Origin: an uncultured delta proteobacterium
GTDB taxonomy: Bacteria > Myxococcota_A > Polyangia > Polyangiales > Polyangiaceae
Length of the DNA stretch: 64,000 bases
NCBI GenBank assembly: GCA_963782055.1
Contig: CAWAIF010000002.1
Span: 352,001-416,000, forward strand
Direction: 5' to 3'
Both the position numbers and the translations under genes were made by a program. Shown here piece by piece: positions 17,085-55,327 of the stretch. The stretch's first letter is position 1, and every line of letters starts with the position of its first letter. Below the pieces are notes generated by a model that did not search any database, was not told the origin of the DNA, and saw only the letters and a list, made by a program, of their open reading frames with translations.

Positions 17085-17252
17085 ATGAGCACGAAGAAGT
17101 TCTCGAAGCTGGTGAAGGACAAGCGCGGTGCAACGATGGTCGAGTACGCCATCCTGCTCTTCCTCATCCTCGTCGTCGCGGCCGTCGTCTACAAGAACGT
17201 CGGTACGAAGGTGAAGGACGCCGGTACGTCCGCCGCCAACGCGTTCAACTGA
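17085..17252 (+). CDS. flp: Flp family type IVc pilin, 55 aa
   Basis: Not in the ORF track. GGAGG RBS; MSTKKFSKLVKDKRG/ATMVEYAILLFLILVVAAVVYKNVG.. is a canonical Flp motif. Confidence 0.92.
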   Translation: MSTKKFSKLVKDKRGATMVEYAILLFLILVVAAVVYKNVGTKVKDAGTSAANAFN

Positions 17253-17266
17253 TCCTCAGGTGCCCA

Positions 17267-17298
17267 GGCGCCGCGTCCTCGGTTGGGGGCGCGGCGCC
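17267..17298 (+). terminator. Strong hairpin after the major pilin (terminator or mRNA stabiliser)
   Basis: GGCGCCGCGTCCTC-ggtt-GGGGGCGCGGCGCC, a 14-bp stem with G-U pairs; no U tract. Confidence 0.55.
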
Positions 17299-17341
17299 GG
17301 CGTGAAACAGGGCGACCACCGATCGTGATACAAGTCGGCGT

Positions 17342-17875
17342 ATGACCTATTTTCTCGTTGCGGCTGCCCTCGTGGCAGCCGTCGCGGCCGTCACCGACTG
17401 GAAGACGGGAGAGATCCCGAACTGGCTCACGCTCGGCGCCCTGTTCCTCGCCCCGATCGCCTACGGCGCCGTCGCCGCGGTGCACCACGCACCCGACATC
17501 GGCATGCAGGTGGTCTGGTCTCTGCTGGGCGCCATCGTTTGCGCCATCGTCCCGGGGCTGCTCTACCGGCAGGACGCCATCGGCGGCGGCGACGTGAAGC
17601 TACTGATTGCGCTCGGCGCGATTCTCCAGGCCCGCCTGGGACTCGAAGCCGAGATGTACTCATTTTTCGCGGCGGGTTTGATCGCCCCGGCGCGACTTGC
17701 TTACGAAGGGAAGCTGTTCAGGACCATCAAGAACACGTTGCTCTTGGCCCTGAACCCGCTCCTCCCGAAAAAGAAACGTCGGACCGTCGAACCGACGCTT
17801 CTTACCTGGTTTCGATTCGGACCTGCGATATTCTTAGGAACGGCGTTGGTGGCCTACATCCACTGGAGGCAGTGA
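17342..17875 (+). CDS. cpaA: Prepilin peptidase CpaA/TadV (A24 family)
   Basis: TDWKTGEIPNWLT, IGGGDVKLLIALGA, FGPAIFLG; follows the flp genes. Confidence 0.92.
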   Translation: MTYFLVAAALVAAVAAVTDWKTGEIPNWLTLGALFLAPIAYGAVAAVHHAPDIGMQVVWSLLGAIVCAIVPGLLYRQDAIGGGDVKLLIALGAILQARLGLEAEMYSFFAAGLIAPARLAYEGKLFRTIKNTLLLALNPLLPKKKRRTVEPTLLTWFRFGPAIFLGTALVAYIHWRQ

Positions 17876-17877
17876 GC

Positions 17878-18345
17878 ATGAACAAGCTGAGGAAGCCCGT
17901 GGCGCGAAGCACGAAGGGAGCGGTCCTCGCCGAGTTCATCATCGCCATCATCCCGATCTCCGCGATGTTCCTGTGCGTGTGCCAGATCGCGCGCCTGCAG
18001 ATCGCACGACTCGCCACGATGCACGCGGCTCAAGTGAGCGTGCGTGCGTGTGCGGTCATCGTCGATCCGGACCCCGGTCACGACCAGGGAGTCGACGGCA
18101 AGGACACCGACGTCGTCACCGCCGAGCGCCAGGTGCTCAAGCCGTTCGAGGGGAGCGAGTACGCCGCCGAGGACGCCACCTGCAAGCACTCCGGCGACGT
18201 GAACGGCGGGACGGATACGGTGACCATCAAGGCCACCTACACCTGCACGATCCCGCTCGCGCGGCACATCATCTGCCCGGGCGGGACCCGCAAACTCGAT
18301 GCCCAGGCGCAGTTCCCCCACCAAGGCGCGGAGTACGAGCTATGA
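17878..18345 (+). CDS. TadE-like pseudopilin
   Basis: STKG/AVLAEFIIAIIP..MFL..HAAQVSVR prepilin-like N-terminus. Confidence 0.85.
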   Translation: MNKLRKPVARSTKGAVLAEFIIAIIPISAMFLCVCQIARLQIARLATMHAAQVSVRACAVIVDPDPGHDQGVDGKDTDVVTAERQVLKPFEGSEYAAEDATCKHSGDVNGGTDTVTIKATYTCTIPLARHIICPGGTRKLDAQAQFPHQGAEYEL

Positions 18346-20018
18346 GCGCTGCCGTTGCACCGTCGGTCCTGTCCTTCCTCTTCGCCAAGGAGCGCGATCG
18401 AGCGAAGCGCACCGTGAACGACAACCGCGGCGCCATCATGGTGCTCGGCATCTTCATGGCGTGCGTGATGATCGGCTTCATGTGGATGCTGGTCGGCCTG
18501 GGCGACGCGATGATCTGGCGCGACCGCTCGCAGGAGGCAGCTGACGCGCTCGCCTACACGAGCGCCGCCGCCGACGCGAAGGCGATGAACTTCATCTCCT
18601 TCCTCAACCTCATCATGCTCCTCATCGCCGCCATCTATCTGGCGATGGCGCTCATCTACAACCTGCTCGACTTCACGCTCGTGCTCGTCGGTCGCACCGA
18701 CGACGGTCCCTGGCTGCGTCCGTCCTCCTGCGAGTACCGCGACGGCGTGAAGGACTTCGCGGCGATCGCCCTGGACGAGACGGGTATCGGCGAGGTGCTG
18801 CAGGCGATCGACTTCTGCGAGGTGGCCGATATCGCTCAGCCCCTGCACGACACGGTGGGCAAAGCACTGCGTGCCTACGAGAAGGACGTGATGTGGACCA
18901 TCCTCCCCTTGCTATCGAAGGCGGAGACCTTCGTCGCGATGGCCGGACCCTGGGTGGGCGCTGCGCTCGGGTCGATGGATGCCTACAAGTACACGGACTG
19001 GGGGAAGCATCGCTACGGCCTTCCCATCAGCTCCTCCATGGTTCCGGCGAGTGTCCTCCCCGCACCCGTCAAGAAGTGGTCCGCTGAGGATCGCAAGAAG
19101 CCGTACACCGGGCGCGACGGCCGTCAGGGCCTGCCGGTGGAGCCGAAGGAGATGGGCGAGCTTTGCAAGGTCGCCGCCGACGGCATCCTGGACACGACGC
19201 TGGGCTTCCTGAAGAAGATCCCCGGCATCGGCCTCATCGCCAAGCTCATGTTCGGCGGCATCGCCGACGCGATGGAGAAGGACTACTGCAAGAAGAACGC
19301 GAAGGGCATCTTCGGCAGCTTCGACGGCTGGGTGGCAGGCCTCGGTCATGCCCTCTCGGTGTGGGGCACCATCGCGGGCAAGGGGCCCAACCCGGACCAC
19401 GGCATCTATCACGTGGAGAAGAACGGGAAGTCCATCTGGGAGGACCCGGACGGCGTCGGCGGCCCGCACGAGGTCGTCGAGTACGCCGAGAACGGCAACG
19501 ACTGGATGCAGGTGTGGGGCGGCGTGCTCGGCGCCAACCGTCCGGAGCAGGCGCAGCGGAAGGTCGGCGCGGTCTACGCCCCGGCCCTCAACAGCCAGGC
19601 GCCCAGCGACACGACGGTGCAGGGCTTCCTCGCCAGCCTCACCACGAACTTCTCCTTCTACTTCGCGCAGTCGGAGTTTTATTACGACTGCGACAAGAAG
19701 TGGACGGACGAGGAGTGCAACAAGAACTCGCTCGCCAGCTACAACCTGAAGTGGCGCGCGCGCCTCCGCCGTGTCCACGGCATCTCCTGGGGCAAGGACA
19801 TGCTCGGGTGGTTCTGGAACACCAGCATGGGCGGCGACTTCGACAAGTGGGTCAAGGGCGGCGAGCAGGGTGACGTCAAGACCCTCTCCGAGAGCATCCA
19901 CGGGTTCGAGGGTGAGACGGCCGTCAACGGCGCCTACGACGCCGTCAAGGGCTTCGCCGGCCAGCAGGTCGGCGGCATGATCAACCCCGCCTCGGCGCTG
20001 CCGTCGGTCATCCACTGA
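18342..20018 (+). CDS. TadG-like pilus-associated protein (putative tip adhesin)
   Basis: DNRG/AIMVLGIF..., R...QEAADALAY.SA Tad-domain motif; large Cys-containing extracellular part; ATGA overlap with the upstream gene. Confidence 0.8.
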   Translation: MSAAVAPSVLSFLFAKERDRAKRTVNDNRGAIMVLGIFMACVMIGFMWMLVGLGDAMIWRDRSQEAADALAYTSAAADAKAMNFISFLNLIMLLIAAIYLAMALIYNLLDFTLVLVGRTDDGPWLRPSSCEYRDGVKDFAAIALDETGIGEVLQAIDFCEVADIAQPLHDTVGKALRAYEKDVMWTILPLLSKAETFVAMAGPWVGAALGSMDAYKYTDWGKHRYGLPISSSMVPASVLPAPVKKWSAEDRKKPYTGRDGRQGLPVEPKEMGELCKVAADGILDTTLGFLKKIPGIGLIAKLMFGGIADAMEKDYCKKNAKGIFGSFDGWVAGLGHALSVWGTIAGKGPNPDHGIYHVEKNGKSIWEDPDGVGGPHEVVEYAENGNDWMQVWGGVLGANRPEQAQRKVGAVYAPALNSQAPSDTTVQGFLASLTTNFSFYFAQSEFYYDCDKKWTDEECNKNSLASYNLKWRARLRRVHGISWGKDMLGWFWNTSMGGDFDKWVKGGEQGDVKTLSESIHGFEGETAVNGAYDAVKGFAGQQVGGMINPASALPSVIH

Positions 20019-20026
20019 GGCCCGCC

Positions 20027-20506
20027 ATGAACCCCAAGCACACCAGCAGCAAGTTTCTGGCAGCCCAGCGGAAGAAGGGAGGCGGCGTGGCCCTGGTCGA
20101 GGCCGGCATCCTCGCCCCCATCTTCGCGATGATGATGATGATGACCGTCTACCTCGGCGGCGTGTACCAGAAGAAGTACATCAGCACGATGAAGTCCCGC
20201 GACATGGCGTTCACCAAGGCCGCTGCCGGCTGCACGACCGGCGACTCCCAGCCCGGCTTCGGCGGGAGCGAGCCCAACGTGAGCGGCGGCGCCAACAACC
20301 CGTCCGGCAAGGCGATGGGCAGCGAGTCCGCGGCGACCTCCAACATGTTCTTCGCCACCGGCAAGGACACCGAGACGTGGGACTACGAGCCCACCTACAA
20401 GTTCAACGGCGGCGGCCCGAAGAGCGTGACTAGCTTGAGCTACGTCATGTGCAACGAGCCGCAGCGCGGGTACGCGTGGCCCATCAAGCTGGGGTGGAGC
20501 CCCTGA
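20027..20506 (+). CDS. TadE/TadF-like pseudopilin
   Basis: KKGGG/VALVEAGILAPIFAMMMMM prepilin-like motif; C-terminal CNE. Confidence 0.78.
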   Translation: MNPKHTSSKFLAAQRKKGGGVALVEAGILAPIFAMMMMMTVYLGGVYQKKYISTMKSRDMAFTKAAAGCTTGDSQPGFGGSEPNVSGGANNPSGKAMGSESAATSNMFFATGKDTETWDYEPTYKFNGGGPKSVTSLSYVMCNEPQRGYAWPIKLGWSP

Positions 20507-20530
20507 CACTGACAGGAGCGGAGACACACG

Positions 20531-21517
20531 ATGGTCATCTACCTATGGATCCTCAGCAAGCTGTCGAAGAAGACGCCCGGCGCAAGGCGCTTCTTCGGCA
20601 TGATGCGGGTGCTGGCCTACGTGACGGTGCTGTCGCTCGTGATGGGGGCGTTCACCATCCACAACGCGATGGCAGGCGCGAAGGACCAGAGCCTCCGGCT
20701 CGGCCGAGATCTGCAGGGTCTGTCTGACCTGCTCGCGGGCGGCAACGAGATCATGGTCAACAACCAGCCCATCTTCATCTCCGCCACCGAGACGACCGAC
20801 TCGGTGAGCACGGTGCTGGATCGCTTCGAGGCGCACTGCAACCACGACCCCGCGCTCTCCGAGATGCGCTGGAGCGACCTCGGCAACCTCAAGGGCACCG
20901 TCGCGAAGCCGAAGGACATCAATGGCGTCGGCGTGCTGCGCTCGGAGGACAAGCAGAAGGGCGACGGCGCCGTGGTCTGCTTCACCAACACAGGCGGCAG
21001 CCAGAAGGACCTGCTCAACGCCGTGGAGGCCTTCGGCCGCACCCGCGACCTCTCCTCCTTCGGCCAGCTCCGCTACGTGCACGTCAGCACCGACAAGGAC
21101 GGGGGCACGGTGGTGCGGGCGGTCTGGACGGAGGGCTCCTTCAACATCGGCAAGCTGATGCCGACGGCGGACGGCTCCGACTCCCCCGGCTCCGACTCCC
21201 CGGACGTCCCGCGCCCCGGCCACTCGGTGCGGCGCTTCACCGCCGAGGCGGTGGGCACGCCCTATCGCGCTCGGATCTACGAGACGAGCGAGTCGCCGGA
21301 GAAGCTGCTCGGCTGGTACGACACGGTGATGGCGCAGCGCGGGTGGCTGGTGGTCGACTCGCCGCTCCGCGACCAGAAGAAGGACCCCGCGAGCTGGTTC
21401 ACGCGCGGCGGCAAGATGACGATGGTCTCGCTGATGCGCGACGGCGACAAGACGCGCGTGGTGGTGGGCGACCTCGGCGCGCCGAGCGACCCGCCCAAGG
21501 CGAAGGTGCTTCCGTGA
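20531..21517 (+). CDS. Hypothetical membrane-anchored protein in the Tad cluster
   Basis: GGAG RBS, single TM helix, GC3-biased codons, co-oriented with the tad genes. Confidence 0.75.
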   Translation: MVIYLWILSKLSKKTPGARRFFGMMRVLAYVTVLSLVMGAFTIHNAMAGAKDQSLRLGRDLQGLSDLLAGGNEIMVNNQPIFISATETTDSVSTVLDRFEAHCNHDPALSEMRWSDLGNLKGTVAKPKDINGVGVLRSEDKQKGDGAVVCFTNTGGSQKDLLNAVEAFGRTRDLSSFGQLRYVHVSTDKDGGTVVRAVWTEGSFNIGKLMPTADGSDSPGSDSPDVPRPGHSVRRFTAEAVGTPYRARIYETSESPEKLLGWYDTVMAQRGWLVVDSPLRDQKKDPASWFTRGGKMTMVSLMRDGDKTRVVVGDLGAPSDPPKAKVLP

Positions 21518-26595: not shown

Positions 26596-28773
26596 ATGGT
26601 GGTCCTGTTCGCCTCGACGCTGCTGCTGAGCGCGCTGCTCCTCTTCTGCGTCGAGCCGATGGTGGCCAAGATGATCCTGCCGCTCCTCGGCGGCGTGCCC
26701 GCCGTCTGGAACACGTGCATGGTCTTCTTCCAGGCGGCGCTCCTCGGCGGCTACGCCTTCGCCATGGGGACGCTGCGCGCGCTCGGGCCGCGCCGGCAGC
26801 CGCTCATGCACCTGCTCCTGCTGGCGGCGGCGCTGGTGGTGATGCCCATCGCGGTGGAGCCCGCCCTGGCCGCGCGCTTCGCGTCGCACGGCCCGGTGCT
26901 GCAGGCGCTCTGCATCCTGGGCGCGAGCGTCGCGCTGCCCTTCTTCGCCCTCTCCACGATGGCGCCCACCCTGCAGCGGTGGTTCTCCACCACCGGCGCC
27001 GAGGGCGCGCGCGACCCCTACTTCCTGTACGCCGCGAGCAACCTCGGGTCGCTGGCGGCGCTGGTCGCCTACCCCTTCGTCGTCGAGCCGCTGCTCGGCC
27101 TGCGCGCGCAGGCCCTCGCGGTGCGCGCCGGCTATGCGCTGCTCGTCGTGCTCACCATGGCGTGCGCGGTCGCCACGTGGCGCAGCCCGGTGCAGGCGGT
27201 GCAGGCGGAGGAGGAGGCCAGCGAGCCGCCCATCGCCAACCGGCGGCGCCTCCGCTGGGTGTTCCTGACGGCGGTCCCCTCCGCGTACCTGGTCGCGATG
27301 ACCGAGCACATCACGACGGATGTGGCCCCCACCCCGCTGCTCTGGACGCTGCCCCTCGCGGTCTACCTCCTGTCCTTCGTCCTGGTCTTCGCGCGCAAGC
27401 CACCGCTCTCCCACGCGCGCGTGGTGCGGCTGTACCCGCTCGGCGCGGCGGCGGTGGTCTACACGCTCCTCATCTCCGCCAACGACCCGGCGCCCTTCGT
27501 CGTGACGCTGCACCTCGTCACCTTCTTCGGCGCCGCGATGGTGTGCCACGGCGAGCTCGCGCGCGACCGACCCGGCCCCGGGCGGCTGACCGAGTTCTAC
27601 GTGTGGATGTCGGTGGGCGGGCTCGTGGGTGGCCTCGCGGTGGCGCTCGTCGCGCCGGCGCTCCTGGACCGGCCGGTGGAGTACCCGCTGGCGGTGGTGC
27701 TGGCGCTGCTGGCGCGGCCGATGACCGACCCGAAGGAGCGCGCGAAGGGCCTGCGGGCGAAGCGGCTGGACTACGTGTGGCCCGCCGGCGCGCTGGCGAT
27801 CACCTTCGCGTGCGCGGTCGCCGCGCGGCATCTGCCTCACGCGGCGGCCGTCGCCATCCCGCTCTTGCCGCTGCTCGTCGTGTACGGGTCGCTGGTGAGG
27901 CCGGCGCGCTTCGCGCTCTCGGTGGGGGCGATCCTGGCGGCCTCCGGCTTCTTCCCCAGCCCGTACGGTCACATCGTGCTGCGGCGTCGCAACTTCTTCG
28001 GCGAGCTCCTCGTCGCCCGGTCGCATGACGGGCAGTGGGTCCAGCTCACGCACGGCACCACCATCCACGGCGTGCAGTCGACCGACGCGCGGGGGCGGCG
28101 CGAGCCGCGCTCGTACTACACGCGCTCCGGTCCCATCGGCGACGTCTTCCGCCTCCACGCCGAGCACCCGGCGTCGCCGCGGGTGGCGATCATCGGACTG
28201 GGCGCGGGCACCCTCGCGGCGTACGCGCGGCCCGCGGAGGACTGGACATTTTACGAGATCAACCCCGCCGTCGTGCAGGTGGCGGAGGACACGCGCTACT
28301 TCACCTACCTCGCCGACGCCTTCCCCGGCGGGCGGGGGATGCACGTCGTCCTGGGGGACGCGCGCCTGGAGATCGCGCACGCGGCCGGCAACTACGGGCT
28401 GCTCGTCGTCGACGCATTCAGCTCCGACGCCATCCCGGTGCACCTGGTCACGGTGGAGGCGATGCGCCTGTACGCCTCCAGGATGGCGCCGGGCGGGCTC
28501 ATCGCGTGGCACGTCTCCAACCGGCACGTGGACCTGTTGCCGGTGCTGGCCGAGCTGGGGGCGAGCGCCGGCTGGGCGGTGATGGCTCGCCACGACACCG
28601 AGGCGCTGCCCGACGCCGCGAAGGCCTCGTCGCTCTGGGCGGTGATGGCGAAGGATGCGGCGACCCTCGCGCCCCTGCGCGCGGGCTCGCGCTGGGAGAC
28701 GGTGCCCCGCAAGCCGGGCTTCCGCCCGTGGACCGACGACCGCTCGGCGATCGTGAGCGCGCTCGTCTTCTGA
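26596..28773 (+). CDS. Fused membrane domain / spermidine-synthase-like SAM methyltransferase, copy 1
   Basis: GGVPAVWNTCMVFFQ, DPYFLYAASNLGS, CHGELA..RP....LTEFY, HGTTIHGVQ, IGLGAGTLA, YEINP, GDARL, DAFSSDAIPVHL, WTDDRS. Confidence 0.9.
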   Translation: MVVLFASTLLLSALLLFCVEPMVAKMILPLLGGVPAVWNTCMVFFQAALLGGYAFAMGTLRALGPRRQPLMHLLLLAAALVVMPIAVEPALAARFASHGPVLQALCILGASVALPFFALSTMAPTLQRWFSTTGAEGARDPYFLYAASNLGSLAALVAYPFVVEPLLGLRAQALAVRAGYALLVVLTMACAVATWRSPVQAVQAEEEASEPPIANRRRLRWVFLTAVPSAYLVAMTEHITTDVAPTPLLWTLPLAVYLLSFVLVFARKPPLSHARVVRLYPLGAAAVVYTLLISANDPAPFVVTLHLVTFFGAAMVCHGELARDRPGPGRLTEFYVWMSVGGLVGGLAVALVAPALLDRPVEYPLAVVLALLARPMTDPKERAKGLRAKRLDYVWPAGALAITFACAVAARHLPHAAAVAIPLLPLLVVYGSLVRPARFALSVGAILAASGFFPSPYGHIVLRRRNFFGELLVARSHDGQWVQLTHGTTIHGVQSTDARGRREPRSYYTRSGPIGDVFRLHAEHPASPRVAIIGLGAGTLAAYARPAEDWTFYEINPAVVQVAEDTRYFTYLADAFPGGRGMHVVLGDARLEIAHAAGNYGLLVVDAFSSDAIPVHLVTVEAMRLYASRMAPGGLIAWHVSNRHVDLLPVLAELGASAGWAVMARHDTEALPDAAKASSLWAVMAKDAATLAPLRAGSRWETVPRKPGFRPWTDDRSAIVSALVF

Positions 28774-28808
28774 CGCCGCGCGCCCGCTCGTGTACCGTTC
28801 GATCGCCG

Positions 28809-31014
28809 ATGGTCGCGCTCTTCGCCTCGACCCTCCTGGTCAGCGCCACGCTGCTCTTTTTCATCGAGCCCATGGTGGCGAAGATGCTGCTGCCGCTGCT
28901 GGGTGGGGTGCCCGCGGTCTGGAACACGTGCCTCGTGTTCTTCCAGGCGACGCTGCTCGCCGGCTACCTCTTCTCTCACGCGACGCTCCGGTGGCTCGGG
29001 CCGCGCAAGCAGGCGGTGGTGCAGGTGTTGCTCGTCGCCGGCGCGCTGGGGGTGCAGCCCATCGCCGTCGACGCGGCGCGCGCGGCGCGGCTGGAGCACC
29101 TCGGCCCGGTGGCGCAGGTGCTGCTGCTCCTGCTCGCCTCCGCAGGCCCGCCGTTCTTCGCGCTCTCCACGATGGCGCCCACGCTGCAGCGGTGGTTCTC
29201 CGCCACCCGGGCGCGCGGCGCGCGAGACCCGTACTTCCTGTATGCCGCGAGCAACCTGGGGTCCCTGGGCGCGCTGCTCGCCTACCCCCTGCTGGTCGAG
29301 CCCTTCCTCGGGCTGCCGGCGCAGTCGTCGCTGCTCCGCTGGGCGTACGTGCTGCTCTGCGGGCTCGTCGGCGCGTGCGCGGTGGCCACGTGGAAGCAGC
29401 GCGCGGAACAGGACACGGCGGGCGAGTCGTCCTCGAAGGCGCCGCCGGTGTCGTGGCGGCGTCGCGCGCGCTGGACGGTGCTCGCGATGGTGCCGTCGGC
29501 GTACCTGGTGGCGCTCACCGAGCACATCACGACCGACATCGCGCCGGCGCCGCTGCTCTGGGTGCTGCCGCTGGCGACCTACCTGGCGACCTTCGTCGTC
29601 GTGTTCGCGAGCAAGCCGCCGATAGCGCACGCGCGGGTGGTCCGGGTGCTGCCGATGGCGATGGTGCTCGTCACCTTCGTGGTGGCGTCGGGCGCGGCGG
29701 ATCCGGCGTTCATCGTGGTGCTGCTGCACCTCGCCGGCTTCTTCGTCGCCGGGCTCTTCTGCCACGGGGAGCTGGCGGCGGACAGGCCGGAGCCGGCGCG
29801 CCTCGCCGAGTTCTACGTCTGGATGTCGGTGGGCGGGCTGCTGGGCGGGCTCGCGGTGGCGATGGTCGCGCCGGCGCTCTTCCCGCGGCCCATCGAGCTG
29901 CCCCTCGCGGTGGTCGCGACGGTGCTGTGCGGGCGGTGGGGCACCACGACGGGGTCGAGCAAGCGTGACCGCGCCTTCGACGTGGCGCTGCCCGCCGGCA
30001 CGCTCGCCATCACCCTGGTGGTCGCGTGGGGTGCGCGGCGGACTGGCGCGGGCATGCGCTGGCAGCTCCTGCTCCCGGCGATCCCGCTCCTGCTCGCCTA
30101 CGGCGCGCGCGGTAGGCCGGGCCGGCTCGCCGCGAGCCTGGGCGCGGTGCTCGCCGGCGCGACGCTCTTTCCCAGCCCGGTGGGCGACGTGCTCGACCGC
30201 GAGCGGAACTTCTTCGGCGCGCTCGCGGTGGCGCACGACCCGAGCGGGCGCTTCGTCCAGATCATGCACGGCTACACCGATCACGGGCGGCAGTCGGTCG
30301 ACCCGGCGAAGCGTCGCGAGGCCTCCAGCTACTACACCGCGAGCAGCCCCATCGCCGACGTGCTCGGCCTGTATCGCAAGGCGGAGACGCCGCGGAAGGT
30401 CGCGGTCATCGGTCTGGGCGCCGGCGCGCTGGCGGTCTACGCGCGACCGGAGGACCACTGGACCTTCTTCGAGATCAACCCGGCGGTGGTGCGCATCGCG
30501 GAGAACCCGCGCTACTTCACCTTCCTCGCCGACGCCTTCCCTCGGGGGCCGGACATCGTGCTGGGGGACGCGCGGCTGGAGCTGGCGCGGCACGCGGGCG
30601 GCTTCGGGCTGCTGATCATCGACGCCTTCAACTCCGACGCCATCCCGGTGCACCTGGTCACCGTGGAGGCGGCGCGGCTCTACGCCTCGCGCATGGCGCC
30701 CGGGGGCATCATCGCCTGGCACATCTCCAACCGGACGCTGGACCTTCACCCGGTGCTCGCCGAGCTGGCGGCGGCGCTCGGGTGGGACGCGCTGCGGCGC
30801 GACGACCTGCTCCTGACGCGGAAGGAGAGGCTGGAGGGCAAGACGGCGTCGCAGTGGGTGGCGATGGCGAAGGACCCGCACACCCTGGAGGATTCTGCGT
30901 CGTCCGCCGGGGTCGACGTGGGAGCCGCTGCGGCGAAGGAAGGGCTTCCGGCCGTGGACCGACGCGCGGTCGTCGCTGGTCAGCGTGATCCGCTGGAAGG
31001 CGCAGGAGGAGTGA
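28809..31014 (+). CDS. Fused membrane domain / spermidine-synthase-like protein, copy 2; +1 frameshift near 30890
   Basis: Paralog of the upstream gene along its whole length. The homologous C-terminus (RKGFRPWTDARSSLVSVIRW) lies in another frame ending at 31014, while the uncorrected frame runs to 31061. Confidence 0.85.
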
Positions 31015-31050
31015 GCGCGGAGCCGCGTCGCGTCGACGGGCGGAGGCCCC

Positions 31051-31911
31051 TCAGGGCTTGACGAAGACGAGGACGAACACGTCCTCCTTGGCGCCCGGCG
31101 TGACCGACTCAATCCCGGGGTGCGCGGCCATCGCCCCGAGCTCCGCGGCCGGCTGCGTGATGTCCGGGCGCGCGTCCCAGTCGCGCGGGTCGCTCGAGGT
31201 GCGGATGAAGCGCCCCTCGCTCGCGAGCCGGAAGCCGACCGACTCGATCTCCCGGCGCGTGCTGCGCGACTCCTGCCGGTGCGCGACCTCCGGCGAGTCG
31301 AGCCCGGGGATCGCGCGATCGAGAACGACGTAGCGGCCGCCGTGCTTGAGGGCGAGGTGCGCGGCGTGGTCGATCGCCTGCCGGTCGATGCCGAGCGCGA
31401 CCAGGGTGCCGTACTCGGCGTCGAGGTAGACCATGTCCAGGTCGCGATCGCGGGGGTCGAGGGGGCTCTGGAAGTCACGCGTGCGGGCGACGACGTTGGC
31501 CATCGACGGTCGCGTCAGCCGCTCCTGCCACACCTGCTCGATCCACGGTGGCGTCCAGCGCGGCGCGTTCTGCGCGATCACCAGCCCGCTCGGGCCGACC
31601 GAGAGGGCGAGCAGCTCGGCGAAGTGGCCGGAGCCCGCCGCGAGGACGGCGACGCGCTGCCCCGGTCGCGCGTCCACGTAGGCGAGCATGTCCGCCGACT
31701 GGCGCGTCCTGTCCAGCGCACGGTCCGCGCTGGAACGACCGGGCTGCGCGAGGATCGCGTACACGTCCGGCCCGGGCTGCACCTCGCGGACGACGTGCGT
31801 GTTCTGAGGCACGCGAGGGCGCGCGGCGGGGAGCGTGGCGTTGGAGAGGTTCAGCGGCGGCGCGGTCGCGCATCCGATCAGCAGGGCGAGCAAGGGGTAG
31901 CGGAGCCACAT
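31051..31911 (-). CDS. Predicted SAM-dependent methyltransferase lipoprotein
   Basis: LLIGC lipobox; RS.AD..LD..R, RPGQRV..L.AGSGHF..LLA..VGP.G.V, LKHGGRYVVLD, FVLVFVKP. Confidence 0.8.
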   Translation of the reverse strand: MWLRYPLLALLIGCATAPPLNLSNATLPAARPRVPQNTHVVREVQPGPDVYAILAQPGRSSADRALDRTRQSADMLAYVDARPGQRVAVLAAGSGHFAELLALSVGPSGLVIAQNAPRWTPPWIEQVWQERLTRPSMANVVARTRDFQSPLDPRDRDLDMVYLDAEYGTLVALGIDRQAIDHAAHLALKHGGRYVVLDRAIPGLDSPEVAHRQESRSTRREIESVGFRLASEGRFIRTSSDPRDWDARPDITQPAAELGAMAAHPGIESVTPGAKEDVFVLVFVKP

Positions 31912-32300: not shown

Positions 32301-32999
32301 TCAGCGCCCGCGTCGGCTCGCGCCGGTGACGGTGTCCGGGACGGTGGCGGTGGTCGTGGCGGTCGGGCGGGTCGTCGGCGGCGGGCGGGTCGTCGGCGGC
32401 GGGCGGGTCGTCGGCGGCGGGCGGGTCGTCGGCGGCGGCTTGGTGGTGATGGCGGTGGGGCGCGGCGGGGTGCTGGTGGGTCGGGTGGTGGCCGTGGCGC
32501 TCGCCGTCGCCGACACGGTCGGCACCGGCGGCGTCTCGTGCGTCGGCTCTGCGTGACGCGGCAGCGTGGGCTTCCACGCGGTGGTCGTGTGACACTCCTC
32601 GCACGTCGTCGGGAAGCGGTTCACGTGGTCGGGCGCGCCCTCGTACTCCTTGCGGTGGCACGCGACGCACGCCTTCGGCGTCCCGTGGAAGGTCGGGGGC
32701 TTCGCGCTGTGGCACTTGAAGCAATCCGCCTTGGCGTGGGCGCCGGTCAGCGGCCACGCGTGATCGAGGTGCGTGGGGTGCCAGCCGCTCTGCGCGTGGC
32801 ACACCCCGCACGTCGTCGGCTTCTTGCCCACGTGGTTGTGCGCGCCGCGGTAGTCCGTCATGTGGCACGAGGCGCACTGGGCGGCATCGCTCGGCTCCAC
32901 GCTCGGGTGGCTGCTCGCCTGCTGGGCGAAGCCGGCGATCCCGGCGGCGGCGAGGCCCGCGGCGAGCAGCGAGGCGCCGATGCGCAGGCGGAGGCTCAC
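32301..32999 (-). CDS. Secreted pentaheme cytochrome c with Pro/Thr-rich tail
   Basis: Signal peptide; five CxxCH motifs (CASCH, CGVCH, CFKCH, CVACH, CEECH); HAWPLTGAH; PPPTTR repeats. Confidence 0.88.
   Translation of the reverse strand: MSLRLRIGASLLAAGLAAAGIAGFAQQASSHPSVEPSDAAQCASCHMTDYRGAHNHVGKKPTTCGVCHAQSGWHPTHLDHAWPLTGAHAKADCFKCHSAKPPTFHGTPKACVACHRKEYEGAPDHVNRFPTTCEECHTTTAWKPTLPRHAEPTHETPPVPTVSATASATATTRPTSTPPRPTAITTKPPPTTRPPPTTRPPPTTRPPPTTRPTATTTATVPDTVTGASRRGR
32364..32438. repeat. 18-bp coding tandem repeat, about 4 copies (PPPTTR on the minus strand)
   Basis: GGGCGGGTCGTCGGCGGC repeated. Confidence 0.85.
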
Positions 33000-33000
33000 G

Positions 33001-34978
33001 TCAGAACCTCTCCTCGCGGAAGGTCATGCCGAGGCGCGCGCAGATGGGCCGCAGCTTCGCCGCGAGCCCGGGCGGTCCGCAGAAGAAGACGTCGACGGGC
33101 TCGCTCGGGTGCCAGCGGGCAACGTCCTTCAGCATGCCCTCCCAGTCCGGCGGGCCGATGTGCGTGTGCGTCCGCAGGCCGGTGATGAGGTCGCTGCGGC
33201 CGGCGGCGTGCATCACCTCCCGCGCCAGCTCGACGCCCAGCGCGGTGACGCCGGCGCCGCGGCCGTTCATGCAGAGGTGGACGTCCAGCAGGTTCTCCCG
33301 GTCCTCCTGCTCCAGCCGCGCGAGCAGCTCGCGGAACCACTCGAAGGAGTACTGGTCGCGGTTGAGCCAGAAGAAGTGGACCTTGCGCAGCGCGCTGGGC
33401 CGCCGGCTGTCGCCGTTGCGTCGCAGCACCAGGCTCTCCAGCACGCTGGCGAAGGGGGTGACGCCGATGCCGGCGCCGATGAGCACGGCGTTCTTGGCCT
33501 CGAAGATGTGCGCGCTGGGCGAGCCGTACGGCCCGTCGACGTACGCCACGAGACCCGCGCCGCCGCCGCGCTCCACCACCCGCCGGAGCGCGGCGCTCCA
33601 GTTGCCGAGCGAGCGGACGTGGACGGTGAGGGTATCGCGCTCCGGCGCGCTGCTGAGGGTGAAGGGGTGCCACTCGCGCCTGGCGATGGCGGGGATGCGC
33701 AGGAAGACGTAGTCGCCTGCGGCGAAGTCGAACCCCTGCGGCTTCTCCAGCTCCAGGCGCGTGACGCCGGAGCGCAGCGCCTCGCTCGCGACCACCGGCG
33801 TGGCGGGCGCGCGGCGGAAGAGGCGCAGCACGTGCTCCACGCCGAACCCGGCGATGGGCACGCCCGCCCAGAGGAGGAAGGACGGCGCGTGGGCGACGGC
33901 CAGGACGAACCACGCCACGTAGAGCAGGTGGGTGAAGTAAAAGAGCTCGAAGTGCCTGCTGCGGCGGATGAAGGAGAGGGAGAAGACCCACATCACCGCG
34001 AAGACGAGGAGGAGGGCGACCCCGGTACCGCCGCGCAGGCTCGCGACGAAGCCCCACACCGGCGACGACGCGTGGCCCGTCGCGTAGGCGACGACGAAGG
34101 CGGCCGCGTGCGCGACCGAGATGCCGAAGAGGCTGTGGCCGACGAGCCGGTGGAAGTCGATCGAGTCGTCGATGGGAATGACCTTGCCGAGCCACGAGGC
34201 GCGCACGCGCGTGAGCAGGCGCCGCATCATCGGCAAGAGGATGAGCGCGCCGTTCAGGTCGGCGCACTTGCCGAGGGCGCGGCCGAGGTGCGCGGCGGGG
34301 TCCGGGGCGAGGGTGGCGTCGGTGAGCATGGCCCACACGAAGACCGCGCCGTTGGCCAGCACCCACAGCGTGACGAAGAGGGCGGGCAGCCAGCCGTACT
34401 CCGAGGTTTGCGCGGCGATGCTCGTCTGTCCGGCGCGCGCGTCCAGCCACGCGAGGAGGTCCTCGTTGGGCGCGATCCAGAATCGCCTCGCTGCGGGTCA
34501 TCTTGTCGAGCAAGGCCGGGCGCTTGCGCACGACCGCCTCCAGCTCGTCGAAGGTGATGAAGCCGTCCTTGTTCTTGTCAGCCGCCCAGAAGAGGACCCG
34601 CGCGAGCTGCTCCGGCGGCTGCGTCGCGCGGGCGACGTCGCTCTCGCCGAGGCTGAGGGTGATCATCCGCAGCATCTCCTCCGGGGTGATGCGGCCGTCG
34701 CCGTCGTGGTCGTGCACGCGGAAGGCGAAGAGGAGCTTCTCGCGCTCGGTGCCGAACACGAGCTTGCGCACGCCCTCGAGGAACTCGGCCTTGTCGATGC
34801 TGCCGTCGCCGTTCTTGTCGAAGACGGCGAGCACGCGGCGCGCGAGGTAGTCGCTCCGGAGCCCCAGGGCCTTGCGCAGCTCCTGGAGGTCGATCCGGGC
34901 GTCGGCTCCGGCGTGGTGCGCGAAGGAGCGCTCGAGCATGGACAGGAGACGCCTGTCGACGTGGCTGGCGTCGCTCAT
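33001..34978 (-). CDS. EF-hand NADPH oxidase (NOX5/RBOH-like), split by a 1-nt insertion near 34481
   Basis: N-terminal EF-hands DKNGDGSIDKAEF, DHDGDGRITPEEM, DKNKDGFITFDEL. In the shifted frame: heme His pairs FHRLVG..VAH and FTHLLY..VAH; FAD motifs WHPFTLSS and VDGPYG; NADPH motifs GAGIGVTPFAS, FFWLNRD, FFCGP; terminal FREERF. Deleting one base gives a continuous ~658-aa ORF. Confidence 0.9.
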
Positions 34979-34979
34979 C

Positions 34980-35507
34980 TCAGAAGCTGGAGTCTTTCGC
35001 GCTCACGCAGTCGCTGACGTCGGTCTGGCCCGCGAGCCAGGAGGTGATGCAGCGGTCCTGCGGATCGCCATCCTGCCATAGGGTGTTGCCCTTGTGATGC
35101 TCGGCGCCGCGAGCTTTACGAACCAGGGTGAGGCGATCTGGCTCTGCGCCTCCCTGATTGACCACGTTGGTCATCACCTCCGGCTCCAGGCCGACGACCG
35201 AGGCATAGTCCTCGTCGTACTCGGCCTCCGTGGTCTGGCCTTGCGAGACGGGTTTGTCGCTGGGGTCCAGGCGCAGGCCGATGTTGCCGTAGAGGCGGAG
35301 GTTGCGCTGGGCCGACCCGTGGCAGTCCAGCGTGCCGCAGCGCTTGACGAGCAGGTCAGCGACGGGCGGGAAGGTGGCGCGGTCGGGGAGGGCCTCCGTC
35401 GTGCGGGAGTCGACCGGCGGCGCCGAGCAGGAGAGGGCGACGCCGGTGGCGAGCACCGCCAGCAGGACGCCCAGCCGGGGGAGCGTCAGCATGCTCGCGT
35501 GCTTCAT
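34980..35507 (-). CDS. Lipoprotein with atypical heme-c-like motif CGTLDCH
   Basis: ALSC lipobox; CX4CHG followed by RNLRLYG; K.RG..HHKG; coupled to both neighbours. Confidence 0.75.
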   Translation of the reverse strand: MKHASMLTLPRLGVLLAVLATGVALSCSAPPVDSRTTEALPDRATFPPVADLLVKRCGTLDCHGSAQRNLRLYGNIGLRLDPSDKPVSQGQTTEAEYDEDYASVVGLEPEVMTNVVNQGGAEPDRLTLVRKARGAEHHKGNTLWQDGDPQDRCITSWLAGQTDVSDCVSAKDSSF

Positions 35508-36004
35508 GGGGCCACCCCACCGGGCGGAATGTAAACGTGGCCGGGCGACGCGGGGCCGGCCGGGTCGAAGTGGCAGGCAGCGCACGCGCCGTTGCGTCCG
35601 ACGTCGGCGGTCATGCTGGTGGTGACCCCGCCGTAGGTCACCGCGACCTTCATCGGGTAGACCGGCTGGTACTCGTGCGGCAGCACGTAGAAGTTGCCCG
35701 CCTGGTTGGTCGTCGCGTCGAAGGAGTTGCCCTGGCTGTCGGTGAGCGTCACCGTCGCGCCGTTGGCCGCCTGCAGGTCGTTCGCGTTGACGTAGACCGT
35801 CCCGGCCACGCTGAAGCCCGGCGGATTGCCGACGCTCCCGTCGTGGCAGAGCAGGCACGGCTGGCCCGGCCGGTGGAGCGGCCCGTGAGGCACGCCCGGC
35901 GCCTCTCCGCCCAGGGCCGAGATGGCATCGTCGCGCACCGGATCGCACGAGCCGGCGAGCGCCAGCGCGCAGAGGGCCAGGCCGAGCGCCGTGACCGTTC
36001 TCAT
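35504..36004 (-). CDS. Diheme cytochrome c-like lipoprotein with internal beta-sandwich (carboxypeptidase-regulatory-like)
   Basis: LAGSC lipobox; HRPGQPCLLCH and CAACH; AGTVY...TNQAGNFY. Confidence 0.8.
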   Translation of the reverse strand: MRTVTALGLALCALALAGSCDPVRDDAISALGGEAPGVPHGPLHRPGQPCLLCHDGSVGNPPGFSVAGTVYVNANDLQAANGATVTLTDSQGNSFDATTNQAGNFYVLPHEYQPVYPMKVAVTYGGVTTSMTADVGRNGACAACHFDPAGPASPGHVYIPPGGVAP

Positions 36005-37329
36005 AGCGCCGCCTCCAGCGAGATGGACCCGACCATCGACAGGCGCTGCGTGAGGTAGATGTCGTCGAGGTACTGCGTGGAGGTGAGGTTGAAGTCGACG
36101 CCCAGCATCCACGCGTGAGGATCGTCGCTGCGGCCGAGACCGGTGCGGAAGCTGGCGCCGCCGGTGAAGTTGAGCAGCGGACCCAGCTCGCGGTTACCGG
36201 TGCGCAGGGCGGGGTAATCGAACCCTGGCCGCATCACGTACGCGCGCTGCCAGAAGTTCACCGGCGTCTGGCCGTAGAAGCGGAGGTGCGGGCCGAGCTC
36301 CAGGCGGCGCGTGAGGTCGAACAGCCACCGGGCGTCGGTGGTCGTCGCCTTGAGGCCCCACGTGTCGACGTAGGCGCGCTGGTCGAGGCGCAGCGTGGAG
36401 GTGTGGAAACGGTGCGCCCAGCGCATGGAGACGGCGTAGCGGTCGCGGGTGTCCGGGAGCTGCTCGAGGGCGCGCTCGGAGAGACGCAGGCGGGTGACGT
36501 CGGCGACGGACGCGCCGCGCGGCACCACCACGCCGGGCGCGAAGAGCGGCACGTAGCGGTAGGGCTTTGACGGGTCGCCGTACTCGATCATCACGTCGGC
36601 CACGACCGAGAGCACCGTCGCGCGGTCCACCACCAGCGTCATGCCGCCCTTGATGGCGTCGCGGTCCAGGACGCGCGCGAAGACGGAGAAGGGCGTGCCC
36701 GAGCGGCCGGCGATGTCGTGGAGGTGGCTGTAGCCGAGGAGCAGGGTGAGGTTCTTCTCGAAGAGATCCTGCGTGACGGTCGCGCCGCCCATGACCGACG
36801 TGTAGTCCGGCTCGAAGGACAGCGCGGTGTTGGCGGCGACGCCGAAGGTGTGCGGCTTGAACGCGGCGTCCAGCGTGCCCGCGTGCCGCACCTCGACGAA
36901 GGGGGGAGAGGCGGTCGACACGACGTCAGCGGACGCAGCGGACACGACGTCGACCAGGTAGCGGCCGTTGACGCTCCAGCCGGCGACGGCGTTGGTGAGG
37001 CCCCCGGCGATGGATGGCGTCAGGACGTAGACGTTGTCGGAGTCGAGGTAGCCGGCCACGTCCATGGACGCGGTGACGTCCACGGCGTGCTCGACGACCG
37101 ACGTCGCCTTGGCGGTGCGCTCCTCCGGGCTGCCCAGGTGCAGCTCGGCGCGCGGGTGGCCGCCGGGGTCGGTGCTGGAGGGCGACTGCGCGCGCGCGGT
37201 CCCCCTGTGGAGCAGGCACGCGAGGACGGCGAGCAGGACGAGGGCGGAGCGCGCTGCCCCGGGGCTGAGCCGGCTACCTCTTCGGGCCGTCGGCCCGCGC
37301 TCCGCGCGCGACCTCAGTTGCAGCCACAC
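36001..37329 (-). CDS. DUF3570-like outer-membrane beta-barrel protein
   Basis: YLDSDNVYVLTP, YLVDVVSAASADVV, FEPDYTS, KPYRYV, EQLPDTR.R, R.YVDTWG; overlaps the DUF4266 gene. GTG start at 37329 is inferred. Confidence 0.8.
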   Translation of the reverse strand: MWLQLRSRAERGPTARRGSRLSPGAARSALVLLAVLACLLHRGTARAQSPSSTDPGGHPRAELHLGSPEERTAKATSVVEHAVDVTASMDVAGYLDSDNVYVLTPSIAGGLTNAVAGWSVNGRYLVDVVSAASADVVSTASPPFVEVRHAGTLDAAFKPHTFGVAANTALSFEPDYTSVMGGATVTQDLFEKNLTLLLGYSHLHDIAGRSGTPFSVFARVLDRDAIKGGMTLVVDRATVLSVVADVMIEYGDPSKPYRYVPLFAPGVVVPRGASVADVTRLRLSERALEQLPDTRDRYAVSMRWAHRFHTSTLRLDQRAYVDTWGLKATTTDARWLFDLTRRLELGPHLRFYGQTPVNFWQRAYVMRPGFDYPALRTGNRELGPLLNFTGGASFRTGLGRSDDPHAWMLGVDFNLTSTQYLDDIYLTQRLSMVGSISLEAAL

Positions 37330-37529
37330 CCACCCCCGGCCTCGAAGCCCCCGCCCGTCGCGCCCTCCTGCACGGCGCGCACGTGCGCCTCGCTCGGGCC
37401 GGCCATGTCGGACGTCGTCATCGACGGATGAGCCAGCCGGCCGCGCTCGTAGGGCGCGACACCGGCACAGCCGGTCGTTGCCAGCACCATGAGAACGATG
37501 AGCATCCACCATGCGATCGAGCGAGCCAT
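37314..37529 (-). CDS. DUF4266-like small lipoprotein
   Basis: TGCAGVAPYERGRLAHPSM ... EGATGG..GGGCGCN, characteristic of DUF4266. Confidence 0.85.
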   Translation of the reverse strand: MARSIAWWMLIVLMVLATTGCAGVAPYERGRLAHPSMTTSDMAGPSEAHVRAVQEGATGGGFEAGGGCGCN

Positions 37530-37565
37530 GCCGCATGAGGAAGTGCCCCATGGCCAGCTGAAGCA

Positions 37566-37581
37566 GGCGAACGCCGTGCCA
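37566..37581 (-). promoter_or_regulatory. Putative sigma54 promoter for the DUF4266-NOX operon
   Basis: Minus strand TGGCACGGCGTTCGC (GG-N10-GC), about 37 nt upstream of the start codon. Confidence 0.5.
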
Positions 37582-37666: not shown

Positions 37667-38410
37667 ATGTTCTTGCCAACTGTTGTAGAGCTGGCGCGCC
37701 GTTTGCGGCCGCTGGTGCTATCTTGCGCATGCGCCGCCTTCGCGCTCGCAGCTCGACCGGTGATGGCCGCCGGCGGCGACCTCCCCGCAGGGAGCCCGGC
37801 CGTGGGAAACGACGAGCCGCCGTCGTCGCCGCCGAAGAAGAAGCCGGCGACGGTGGACTGGGAGCTGGCGGGAAACGCCGGGTACCTCTCGGCGCCCATC
37901 CGCGGGGGGACCACGCCGTTCGGCTTCGGGTTCGGCGCGCGCTTCGGGATGATCGTCACCGGCGCCTACTTCGGCGTGAACGTGGTCGACTACCTCGGCG
38001 GCACCGACGTGACGCTCTCCGACAGCGCGCTGCTGTTCGGCGGTGAGATCGGCTACGGCGTGGTGCTCCACGAGTTCGAGAGCTTCCACGGCACGCTGGT
38101 GCTGCGGCCGCTCGTCGGCGTGGGCAACGCGGCGGTCTCGCACACCGACCCCGCCACCGTCCAGAACGCCAAGCCCGACGTCGTCACCACCGCGAGCGGC
38201 CGCACAGTGACGCGCGGTGCCCCCTCCGACACGACCACCGTCGACAACGTCTACGTGCGACCGGCGCTCGCGCTCATGCTGGTCACCGGCTGGCACTTCG
38301 CCGCGCTGGAGGGCAGCGCGCTCGTCATCCCGGGCATCAGCTACGGCGGGGCCGACCCGACGAGCTGGATCTCCTACGGCGGCCAGCTCCAGCTCGGTCT
38401 GCGCTTCTGA
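37667..38410 (+). CDS. Putative small outer-membrane beta-barrel protein
   Basis: Signal-like N-terminus; alternating Gly/aromatic strands (GFGFGARFG, GGEIGYG, LRPLVGVG); C-terminal LGLRF. Confidence 0.7.
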   Translation: MFLPTVVELARRLRPLVLSCACAAFALAARPVMAAGGDLPAGSPAVGNDEPPSSPPKKKPATVDWELAGNAGYLSAPIRGGTTPFGFGFGARFGMIVTGAYFGVNVVDYLGGTDVTLSDSALLFGGEIGYGVVLHEFESFHGTLVLRPLVGVGNAAVSHTDPATVQNAKPDVVTTASGRTVTRGAPSDTTTVDNVYVRPALALMLVTGWHFAALEGSALVIPGISYGGADPTSWISYGGQLQLGLRF

Positions 38411-54685: not shown

Positions 54686-55327
54686 ATGCAATCCGTGGAA
54701 CCCGAGCGCGCCTCTGCCACACGTACCCACCAGGAAGAGCGCATCGACGAGGCGCTGGACGAGTCCTTCCCGGCCAGCGACCCGCCCTACTTCTCGCTCG
54801 GCGTGAAGGCTCCGGCCGAGCCGCCGCCGCCTCCAGCCGAGAAGCGGACGGCGGCGCCGATGGTCGAGCCGCGGCGCTACGCCTTCGGTGCCACCGCGGC
54901 GATCGTCACGAGCGTGAGCCTCATCGTCGGCCTCGCCGCCGCCTCGGCGTCGCGCACCGCGATCGTCACTGGCCTCCTCATCATCGCGCTGGCCGACAAC
55001 ATCACCGACTCGCTGAGCGTGCACATGTACCAGGAGTCGGAGAAGCTGGAGTCCACCGCCGCCTTCCGCGTCACGCTCACCAACTTCGGCGCGCGCCTCT
55101 TCGTGGCGAGCAGCTTCGTCGCGCTCGTGCTCACGCTGAGCATCCCGGCGGCGTCCATCGTGGCCGTCACGTGGGGCGCCGTGCTGCTCTCCCTCGTCAC
55201 CTATGACGTGGCGCGCACCCGCGGTCTGAGCCCGGCGCGCGAGATCGCCAAGCACCTGGCGGTGGCCACGCTGGTGATCGCCGTCGGGCGGACCATCGGC
55301 TGGCTCCTCGCGCCCGGCGCCGCCTGA
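54686..55327 (+). CDS. VIT1/CCC1-like membrane protein with N-terminal DEALDESFPASDPP motif
   Basis: FGATAAIVTS..LIVGL, LIIALADNITDSLS.HMYQESE, EIAKHL; about five TMs. Confidence 0.65.
   Translation: MQSVEPERASATRTHQEERIDEALDESFPASDPPYFSLGVKAPAEPPPPPAEKRTAAPMVEPRRYAFGATAAIVTSVSLIVGLAAASASRTAIVTGLLIIALADNITDSLSVHMYQESEKLESTAAFRVTLTNFGARLFVASSFVALVLTLSIPAASIVAVTWGAVLLSLVTYDVARTRGLSPAREIAKHLAVATLVIAVGRTIGWLLAPGAA

Follow-up and report, generated by a model that had tools for sequence, protein, structure and literature searches.

We analysed a stretch of 64,000 nucleotides (nt) from an uncultured delta proteobacterium of the family Polyangiaceae (GenBank assembly GCA_963782055.1, contig CAWAIF010000002.1, positions 352,001 to 416,000), hereafter the window, and focused on a run of six minus-strand genes within it. 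The source genome comprises 7.58 Mb in 3 contigs. The last two genes of the run encode a NOX5-like oxidase of reduced nicotinamide adenine dinucleotide phosphate (NADPH) with EF-hands and a multiheme c-type cytochrome, and the pair forms a mobile unit of two genes that is conserved in Polyangia-type Myxococcota. Judging from the sequences, we propose that the two proteins act as a Ca2+-gated reductase passing electrons from NADPH to a periplasmic cytochrome with a flavin-tipped arm, and we put the probability of this reading at about 0.7. From gene order, motifs and residue changes we infer the calcium gating, the direction of electron flow, the direct contact between the partners and the flavinylation. 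The four genes upstream, DUF4266-DUF3570-diheme-CX4CH, are a common multi-copy envelope cassette, and the six genes are two independent modules side by side. The features of the NOX-cytochrome pair are given here in gene order.

34481..34978, minus strand: N-terminal half of the NOX5-like gene, an EF-hand domain (Pfam) with 3 canonical Ca2+ loops (34784-34819, 34676-34711 and 34544-34579)
34480..34484 (~34482), minus strand: one-base frameshift dividing the NOX gene; one base longer than in 7 relatives, with the codon-position guanine-cytosine (GC) signal changing frame there
33001..34479, minus strand: membrane and dehydrogenase half of the NOX5-like gene; 4 heme His, HPFT, GIGVTPF, LITGL, FCGP and EERF all present
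34096..34110, minus strand: HAAAF, the outer-heme His ligand and then Phe at the O2-site His position (csNOX5 H317, NOX2 H119), from alignment to 5o0t and human NOX5
34069..34080, minus strand: Gly-His of outer loop C, invariant in the cytochrome-linked clade and specific to it, 11-12 residues past the outer-heme ligand
32301..32999, minus strand: pentaheme cytochrome c (translation; Cytochrome_C7 in Pfam) with an N-terminal signal/anchor, 5 CxxCH motifs and a 95-residue Pro/Thr-rich tail
32316..32336, minus strand: C-terminal D-T-V-T-G-A-S, matching the ApbE flavinylation motif, a predicted site

The NOX gene was found in 69/401 genomes of the order and in 5/401 of a phylum sample, and its closest relatives with record titles came mostly from Polyangiaceae and other Myxococcota metagenome-assembled genomes. 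Among 110 non-redundant genome loci, 63 had a multiheme cytochrome gene directly downstream, 37 had none and 10 were cut off; for the 63 metagenome loci, counted after removal of 18 near-duplicates, the figures were 37, 19 and 7. Both sets consist of best-scoring matches, so that these proportions lean towards close relatives. Synteny had been set beforehand as the check on the preliminary description of this DNA, and the outcome is divided: NOX orthologues lie beside the cytochrome (100/156 decidable non-redundant loci, sets pooled) and not beside DUF3570. The spacing is tight, the cytochrome starting -17 to +5 nt from the NOX stop in 60/60 loci measured, and the linked cytochromes of the genome set comprised 49 five-heme, 12 eight-heme and 2 truncated forms. 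In a tree made by a quick search with a cyanobacterial root, after removal of the trait columns and with three short rows left out, 61 linked NOX and 5 undecidable ones formed one clade with no unlinked member (Shimodaira-Hasegawa-like approximate likelihood ratio test, SH-aLRT, 94).

The protein itself is clearly of the NOX5 type. Human NOX5 aligns over its full length through the intact relative L013 (E 6e-118), and in intact relatives EF-hands, ferric-reductase domain and FAD/NADPH domains form a single chain. The window NOX has the four heme-ligating His in transmembrane helices 3 and 5 (TM3, TM5) and, by alignment to csNOX5 and human NOX5, the equivalent of csNOX5 Arg256. The O2 site is different. 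In csNOX5 the O2 cavity consists of Arg256, His313 and His317, and the H317R variant was oxidised at least five-fold more slowly, according to PMC8129163; the corresponding His (His119/His317) is taken in PMC3591440 and PMC9421330 as separating NOX from ferric reductases. This His was present in 0/61 linked against 30/37 unlinked NOX of the genome set and in 0/33 against 15/19 of the metagenome set, that is, 0/94 against 45/56 when the sets are pooled, six linked rows that did not cover the site being left aside. The Asn that follows it was found in 0/61 linked and 26/37 unlinked NOX of the genome set, and is Ala in the window. As judged by alignment, the window protein is a NOX5 homologue lacking the His119 that serves to mark a superoxide-producing NOX. 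A small NOX clade (L017, L060, L062 and L064) carries Arg at the O2-site His position, in most cases with the pocket Arg altered as well, and neither apbE nor a cytochrome gene lies nearby.

A column scan also revealed a Gly-His at +11/+12 from the outer-heme ligand in 61/61 linked NOX of the genome set; the 37 unlinked ones gave one near match, at a different offset. The metagenome set was fetched after the pattern had been defined, and there Gly-His was present in 33/33 linked and 0/19 unlinked NOX, giving 94/94 linked and 0/56 unlinked at that position overall. Of the best 150 matches in a wider protein search, the O2-site His alone was found in 92, Gly-His alone in 8 and the two together in none; 23 had neither (some of them mis-anchored) and 27 were unparsable. 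The His of this loop motif would dock the cytochrome and may ligate one of its c-hemes. The pentaheme has four well conserved distal His (46, 46, 43 and 40 of 46) for five hemes, and cross-subunit heme ligation has precedent in NrfH/NrfA. Among unlinked homologues of the cytochrome, an upstream His was seen in L277-L281 and not in L284-L286, which lends weak support to the idea of a missing ligand. When the NOX membrane domain was modelled as a complex with the pentaheme domain plus four hemes, the score was 0.19, against a mark of 0.32.

The second partner combines hemes with what is probably a flavin site. Its tail contains an 18-nt tandem repeat (32352-32438) and leads to the terminal motif, and D-x-x-[T/S]-x-x-S occurred within the last 32 residues of 35/41 long-tailed homologues in the genome set and 21/25 in the metagenome set (56/66 together), compared with 55/6168 genome open reading frames (0.9%) and 0/19 other Pro/Thr-tailed proteins as controls. 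The ApbE target is given in PMC11334425 as an [S/T]GA[S/T]-like motif. Pfam returned no FMN_bind match for the pentaheme. In L301, L325 and L334 the cytochrome gene and apbE share a 4-nt overlap at the cytochrome stop, and the exact motif is present in all three tails; the NOX of these loci are 70-77% identical to each other and may represent one lineage. ApbE was found in 56/65 genomes searched, including 46/48 with the NOX-cytochrome pair, and the two pair-bearing genomes without it both have the 8-heme form lacking the motif. The source genome has two apbE genes, both on contig C3 and none at the window locus. A lipobox pattern is present in 47/60 linked cytochromes, and the window's genus has a non-lipobox signal. 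The AlphaFold2 (AF2) model of the pentaheme, made with no hemes, was poor (predicted local distance difference test, pLDDT, 57), and comparison with solved structures gave only generic multiheme matches.

Homologues of the cytochrome also occur apart from NOX. Their clusters contain cytochromes with 10, 20 and 29 hemes, together with a probable barrel and an NAD(P)/4Fe-4S flavoprotein, contexts that fit recruitment from an envelope electron-transfer system. One such conserved cluster (L277-L283 and L285) combines an NAD(P)/4Fe-4S flavoprotein and a membrane protein with 8-, 10-, 20- and 29-heme cytochromes and probable barrels, and is a candidate porin-cytochrome conduit in Myxococcota. The source genome itself (G000) has a cluster of 5-, 10-, 26-, 13- and 3-heme cytochromes at C3:3619135-3627250, possible downstream acceptors. 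A reduced two-heme cytochrome lacking the terminal motif lies downstream of a Gly-His NOX at L296:8935-9340.

Two sister EF-hand NOX genes (L069:2226-5601 and L071:2091-5440) have Ala at the O2 site and no cytochrome, and lie beside apbE; a convergent gene encodes an anchored protein of ~110-130 amino acids ending in RTRSS or RTRTS. They lost the O2-site His independently of a cytochrome, and they are possibly a flavin-acceptor version of the NOX-cytochrome system. In the source genome the same kind of small protein lies between an MsrQ-like gene and apbE, in an MsrQ-like flavinylation cluster (G000 C3:1909145-1911923, L248) made up of a small protein ending in RVRTRSS, apbE and a ferric-reductase membrane protein.

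Taken together, loss of the O2-binding His and a constant multiheme partner with a likely flavin site make electron export probable instead of superoxide production. By analogy with NOX5, Ca2+ on the EF-hands would turn on hydride transfer from cytoplasmic NADPH to flavin adenine dinucleotide (FAD), and the two b-hemes, whose ligands are all present, would carry the electrons over the inner membrane. The outer heme, lacking the His/Asn pocket that positions O2, would then hand its electron to the membrane-tethered periplasmic cytochrome; the invariant outer-loop His would serve for docking and might also supply one c-heme with the sixth ligand that it lacks. From the c-hemes electrons would pass to flavin mononucleotide (FMN) presumably attached by ApbE, as the motif and the linked apbE genes suggest, at the tip of the long Pro/Thr arm, which could hand them to an extracytoplasmic acceptor further away, for instance Fe(III) or a redox protein of the envelope. 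A bolder version is that a branch of NOX5, a family defined by making superoxide, was rewired in myxobacteria as a calcium-gated electron exporter, in which the O2 site gave way to a His that ligates the partner heme across the interface, the partner is a heme and covalent-flavin cytochrome whose ~70-130-residue arm takes electrons over the periplasm, and the acceptor is here possibly the neighbouring flavinylated DUF3570 barrel; in this complete form we regard it as rather doubtful.

Several observations weigh against the cytochrome reductase, and some of them favour a Ca2+-gated generator of reactive oxygen species (ROS), in which NOX still passes electrons to O2, either itself or by way of the cytochrome and its flavin, and superoxide is buffered, scavenged or moved elsewhere by the cytochrome. 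The protein is of NOX5 ancestry with its EF-hands intact (three canonical loops in 55/58 linked NOX), and the pocket Arg and the TG/SG motif of TM4, both present in the window, were retained in 54/61 and 61/61 linked NOX, respectively. Loss of the O2-site His is also seen in unlinked NOX (7/37 in the genome set and 4/19 in the metagenome set), and the pattern of His loss, cytochrome and Gly-His reflects one evolutionary event, so that these are not independent counts. Flavin in its reduced state reacts with O2. As reported in PMC11031084 and PMC5676040, SpNOX makes superoxide without the O2-pocket residues. Dictyostelium NoxC is described as contributing to ROS without His119. The flavin arm is likewise uneven in the genome set: exact [S/T]GA[S/T] was found in only 11/41 tails, many reading TRPS or THPS instead, and the motif is missing from 6/47 complete pentahemes and all 12 octahemes. 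An apbE gene adjoins the cytochrome in only 3 distinct loci, and ApbE is common in the order anyway, occurring in 10/17 genomes whose NOX are all unlinked. The fifth distal ligand could, in place of the loop His, be a His present at cytochrome position 74 in 25/46, and the window's own NOX copy is frameshifted as assembled. Nevertheless, none of the 94 linked NOX has the O2-site His, the outer loop has gained an invariant His, and a wire of five to eight hemes, under strict translational coupling, exceeds the needs of scavenging. The preliminary description offered transfer of NOX electrons to cytochromes or, as an alternative, a controlled ROS system for predation or development. Its idea of transfer to a c-type cytochrome is supported by the conserved pairing and by the absence of the O2-pocket His, and we consider ROS generation unlikely.

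That description had also tentatively joined all six genes into one trans-envelope conduit leading from NADPH to an outer-membrane barrel, and here the comparison with other genomes does not follow it. The features of the cassette, with its flanks, are as follows.

37763..38410, plus strand: divergent gene for an unannotated protein resembling, by sequence, a small outer-membrane barrel; also beside the cassette in L110, L112 and L053
37567..37581, minus strand: sigma54-like GG-N10-GC motif that precedes the first ATG by 38 nt and has one mismatch to the consensus; unconfirmed
37314..37529, minus strand: cassette gene 1, DUF4266 lipoprotein of 71 amino acids (PF14086, E 8e-14; translation) with C-terminus GCGCN
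36001..37329, minus strand: cassette gene 2, predicted DUF3570 outer-membrane beta-barrel (PF12094, E 5e-20); start codon uncertain
36907..36951, minus strand: two tandem flavinylation-like motifs in DUF3570 (D-V-V-S-A-A-S and D-V-V-S-T-A-S), variants of [S/T]GA[S/T] conserved across 45 homologues
35504..36004, minus strand: cassette gene 3, diheme c-type cytochrome lipoprotein with 2 CxxCH, a lipobox-like LAGSC and a carboxypeptidase-regulatory-like middle domain
34980..35507, minus strand: cassette gene 4, CX4CH lipoprotein, probably monoheme (predicted heme binding), with a conserved distal HKG

The preliminary description had the composition of the run right. The six genes are separated by -16 (with the DUF3570 start at GTG 37329), -4, -4, +1 and +1 nt; Pfam recognised DUF4266, DUF3570, the EF-hands (E 2e-24), Ferric_reduct, FAD_binding_8, NAD_binding_6 and Cytochrome_C7; and the heme motifs (2 CxxCH in gene 3, one CX4CH in gene 4, 5 CxxCH in gene 6) agree with its assignments. 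None of the six genes gave an NCBIfam match above cut-off, and a match to XopAW, far below it, was rejected as mere EF-hand similarity. Its barrel assignment for DUF3570 also stands, with an AF2 model (pLDDT 91) that predicts a beta-barrel of about 16 strands whose best structural matches are porin-like outer-membrane barrels. The DUF3570 sites of Chlorobium were shown to be flavinylated (PMC8238504). The sigma54-like motif that it reported upstream is present. However, random upstream regions of the same genome match as well or better in 47/1500 cases, and an equal match was found in 0/34 other DUF4266 upstream regions; no sigma70 site was found upstream either.

The cassette has a distribution of its own. 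It is present three times in the source genome, and only the window's copy precedes NOX; a close DUF3570 homologue occurs in 66/251 genomes of the order, and the diheme and CX4CH genes both adjoin DUF3570 in 40/46 loci. The CX4CH motif was kept in 40/40 homologues of gene 4, whose nearest named Atlas cluster is PSCyt1 (score 0.93, 62% of members). Both hemes of the diheme lipoprotein are conserved among its homologues, and its PF13620 match is weak and below cut-off. The divergent small-barrel-like gene, which has no Pfam or NCBIfam match, accompanies the window's cassette subfamily.

In the one-system conduit, electrons would run from NOX through the pentaheme and the diheme and CX4CH lipoproteins to a flavinylated DUF3570 barrel. 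The 1-nt gap between the CX4CH gene and NOX makes co-transcription likely here, ApbE-type motifs occur in both modules, and the DUF3570 product is a modelled barrel. The genome set offers 91 further non-redundant NOX loci with 1.2 kb or more of upstream DNA, 49 of them linked; one more full cassette was found among these, lying divergently beside the unlinked NOX of L053, which has Thr at the O2-site His position and no cytochrome. Against the conduit, no full cassette precedes any of the 49 linked loci or of 16 others from metagenomes with as much upstream DNA (0/65), the nearest case being L097, a linked locus with a lone diheme-like gene that is 33% identical. Congeners with both modules keep their closest cassette on a different contig from NOX, or lack it, the genes after the cassette differ in every orthologue examined, and family f17 has NOX in 14/31 genomes and a close DUF3570 homologue in 0/31 searched. 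The closest relative, L300 (NOX core 87% identical), has an sdh operon upstream, and its match to the window is confined to NOX and the cytochrome (83% DNA identity over 2.4 kb); the neighbours upstream of NOX differ among congeners as well. Since the cassette is absent from relatives' NOX loci and the neighbours vary, the join in the window is recent. The fusion of the cassette and the NOX pair into one probable transcript is a recent, lineage-specific event, and we consider a single six-gene conduit very unlikely.

Other cassette arrangements were also noted. A CX4CH gene lies 6 kb from the unlinked NOX of the metagenome locus L322. At L225:1813-8230 (G401) a second NOX stands divergently beside a DUF3570 cassette that is followed by a thioredoxin-like gene, and a PepSY-TM gene converges on this NOX. 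Joining the cassette contig of G002 to its NOX contig was rejected, as the contig ends do not overlap.

The preliminary description took NOX for a single intact gene and overlooked the one-base frameshift. Two reading frames are involved, one for the EF-hand half (34978 to ~34482) and another for the membrane/dehydrogenase half (34479-33001), and at the junction the window is one base longer than each of the 7 relatives compared. The EF-hand frame continues for 660 codons past the junction without a stop, which hides the shift. NOX was the only frameshifted gene among 89 tested against relatives' proteins, indicating that the assembly is not generally error-rich, and a genome-wide error pattern was rejected on this count. 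The same figure favours a recent pseudogene, inactive at this locus, as does the dispensability of NOX, two congeners having no NOX match. On the other hand, all catalytic motifs are intact with no second lesion, the NOX core differs from L300 at 126 synonymous and 67 non-synonymous codons, and the few-contig assemblies of relatives carry scattered shifts in the NOX gene at differing places. Contigs of one DNA sequencing run (0.06 share) gave no coverage at the frameshift. We lean slightly towards an assembly error as the source of the extra base, and give a true pseudogene a substantial chance, somewhat below even.

By analogy, the NOX-cytochrome core most likely works like MsrQ and the MsrQ-like flavinylation systems, on a NOX5 chassis. 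With NOX5 (human, PDB 6sz5/8u7y; csNOX5 of Cylindrospermum, 5o0t/5o0x) it shares the single chain of EF-hand, six-helix two-heme and FAD/NADPH domains, together with the heme His, the Arg256 equivalent, HPFT, GIGVTPF, ITGL, FCG and the terminal ExF. It differs in the Phe at the His317 equivalent, the Ala in place of the next Asn, the new outer-loop Gly-His, the obligate multiheme cytochrome gene downstream and, by pattern search, in having three canonical EF loops, against four EF-hands in metazoan NOX5. Another parallel is offered by MsrQ/MsrP and SpNOX, as ferric-reductase-domain proteins whose exposed outer heme is able to reduce periplasmic protein: according to PMC11031084 and PMC5676040, MsrQ and SpNOX pass electrons from the outer heme directly to proteins, and SpNOX does so with cytochrome c in vitro. 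The window NOX, which descends from the NOX5 branch, has EF-hands and a multiheme partner of its own, both of which are missing in MsrQ and SpNOX, and MsrQ has no fused dehydrogenase either. In the MsrQ-like flavinylation systems described by Meheust et al. 2021 (PMC8238504), an ApbE-flavinylated extracytosolic protein is fed by a membrane protein of PF01794 that in many cases also has an NAD-binding domain, and cytochrome and flavin carriers interchange; the cytochrome-linked NOX and the apbE-linked NOX of L069 and L071 mirror this interchange. Here, in contrast, the acceptor is a predicted heme and flavin hybrid, the donor would be Ca2+-gated, and apbE usually lies elsewhere in the genome.

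The cassette for its part resembles the DUF3570/DUF4266/thioredoxin/ApbE(/DsbD) clusters already published in PMC8238504 and mentioned in bioRxiv 10.1101/2023.06.07.544157, having a DUF4266 protein with a terminal CXC beside a DUF3570 protein with two tandem flavinylation-like motifs. Unlike those clusters it includes the diheme and CX4CH lipoproteins and has SAAS/STAS motifs, and Pfam found no apbE, thioredoxin or dsbD among the 19 proteins of the region around the window locus. It also differs from the MtrCAB porin-cytochrome conduit, in which a multiheme cytochrome is threaded through a large barrel and the two genes keep their linkage, in its barrel of about 16 strands, which is unlinked to the pentaheme in relatives.

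No published description of a NOX-multiheme cytochrome pair was found in a search chiefly of the open literature, and the main gene-cluster table of PMC8238504, which lay outside that search, could list such clusters. The physiological acceptor of bacterial NOX is an open question: according to PMC11031084, the functions of SpNOX and CsNOX are not known and their acceptors may be other than O2. This clade offers a genetically coupled candidate acceptor and three residues of interest, namely the lost O2-site His, the new loop His and the tail Thr. If our reading is right, a NOX has reverted to a protein reductase while keeping EF-hand control, contrary to PMC3591440, where ferric reductases with EF-hands are said not to have been seen, and calcium signalling would be tied to envelope electron export in predatory myxobacteria.

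Elsewhere in the window, 26596-31061 encodes two tandem, similar membrane proteins of 725-750 amino acids that have no Pfam match and whose C-terminal halves presumably resemble spermidine synthase. A gene run of lower GC content (about 66-68%) at 17085-21517 contains what we take to be Flp/Tad pilus genes (pilin, prepilin peptidase, TadE/G-like). On the minus strand at 55322-55646, TGGCACGCGTC occurs three times, about 155 nt apart, with the last two copies sharing one 15-mer, and this is possibly a repeat.

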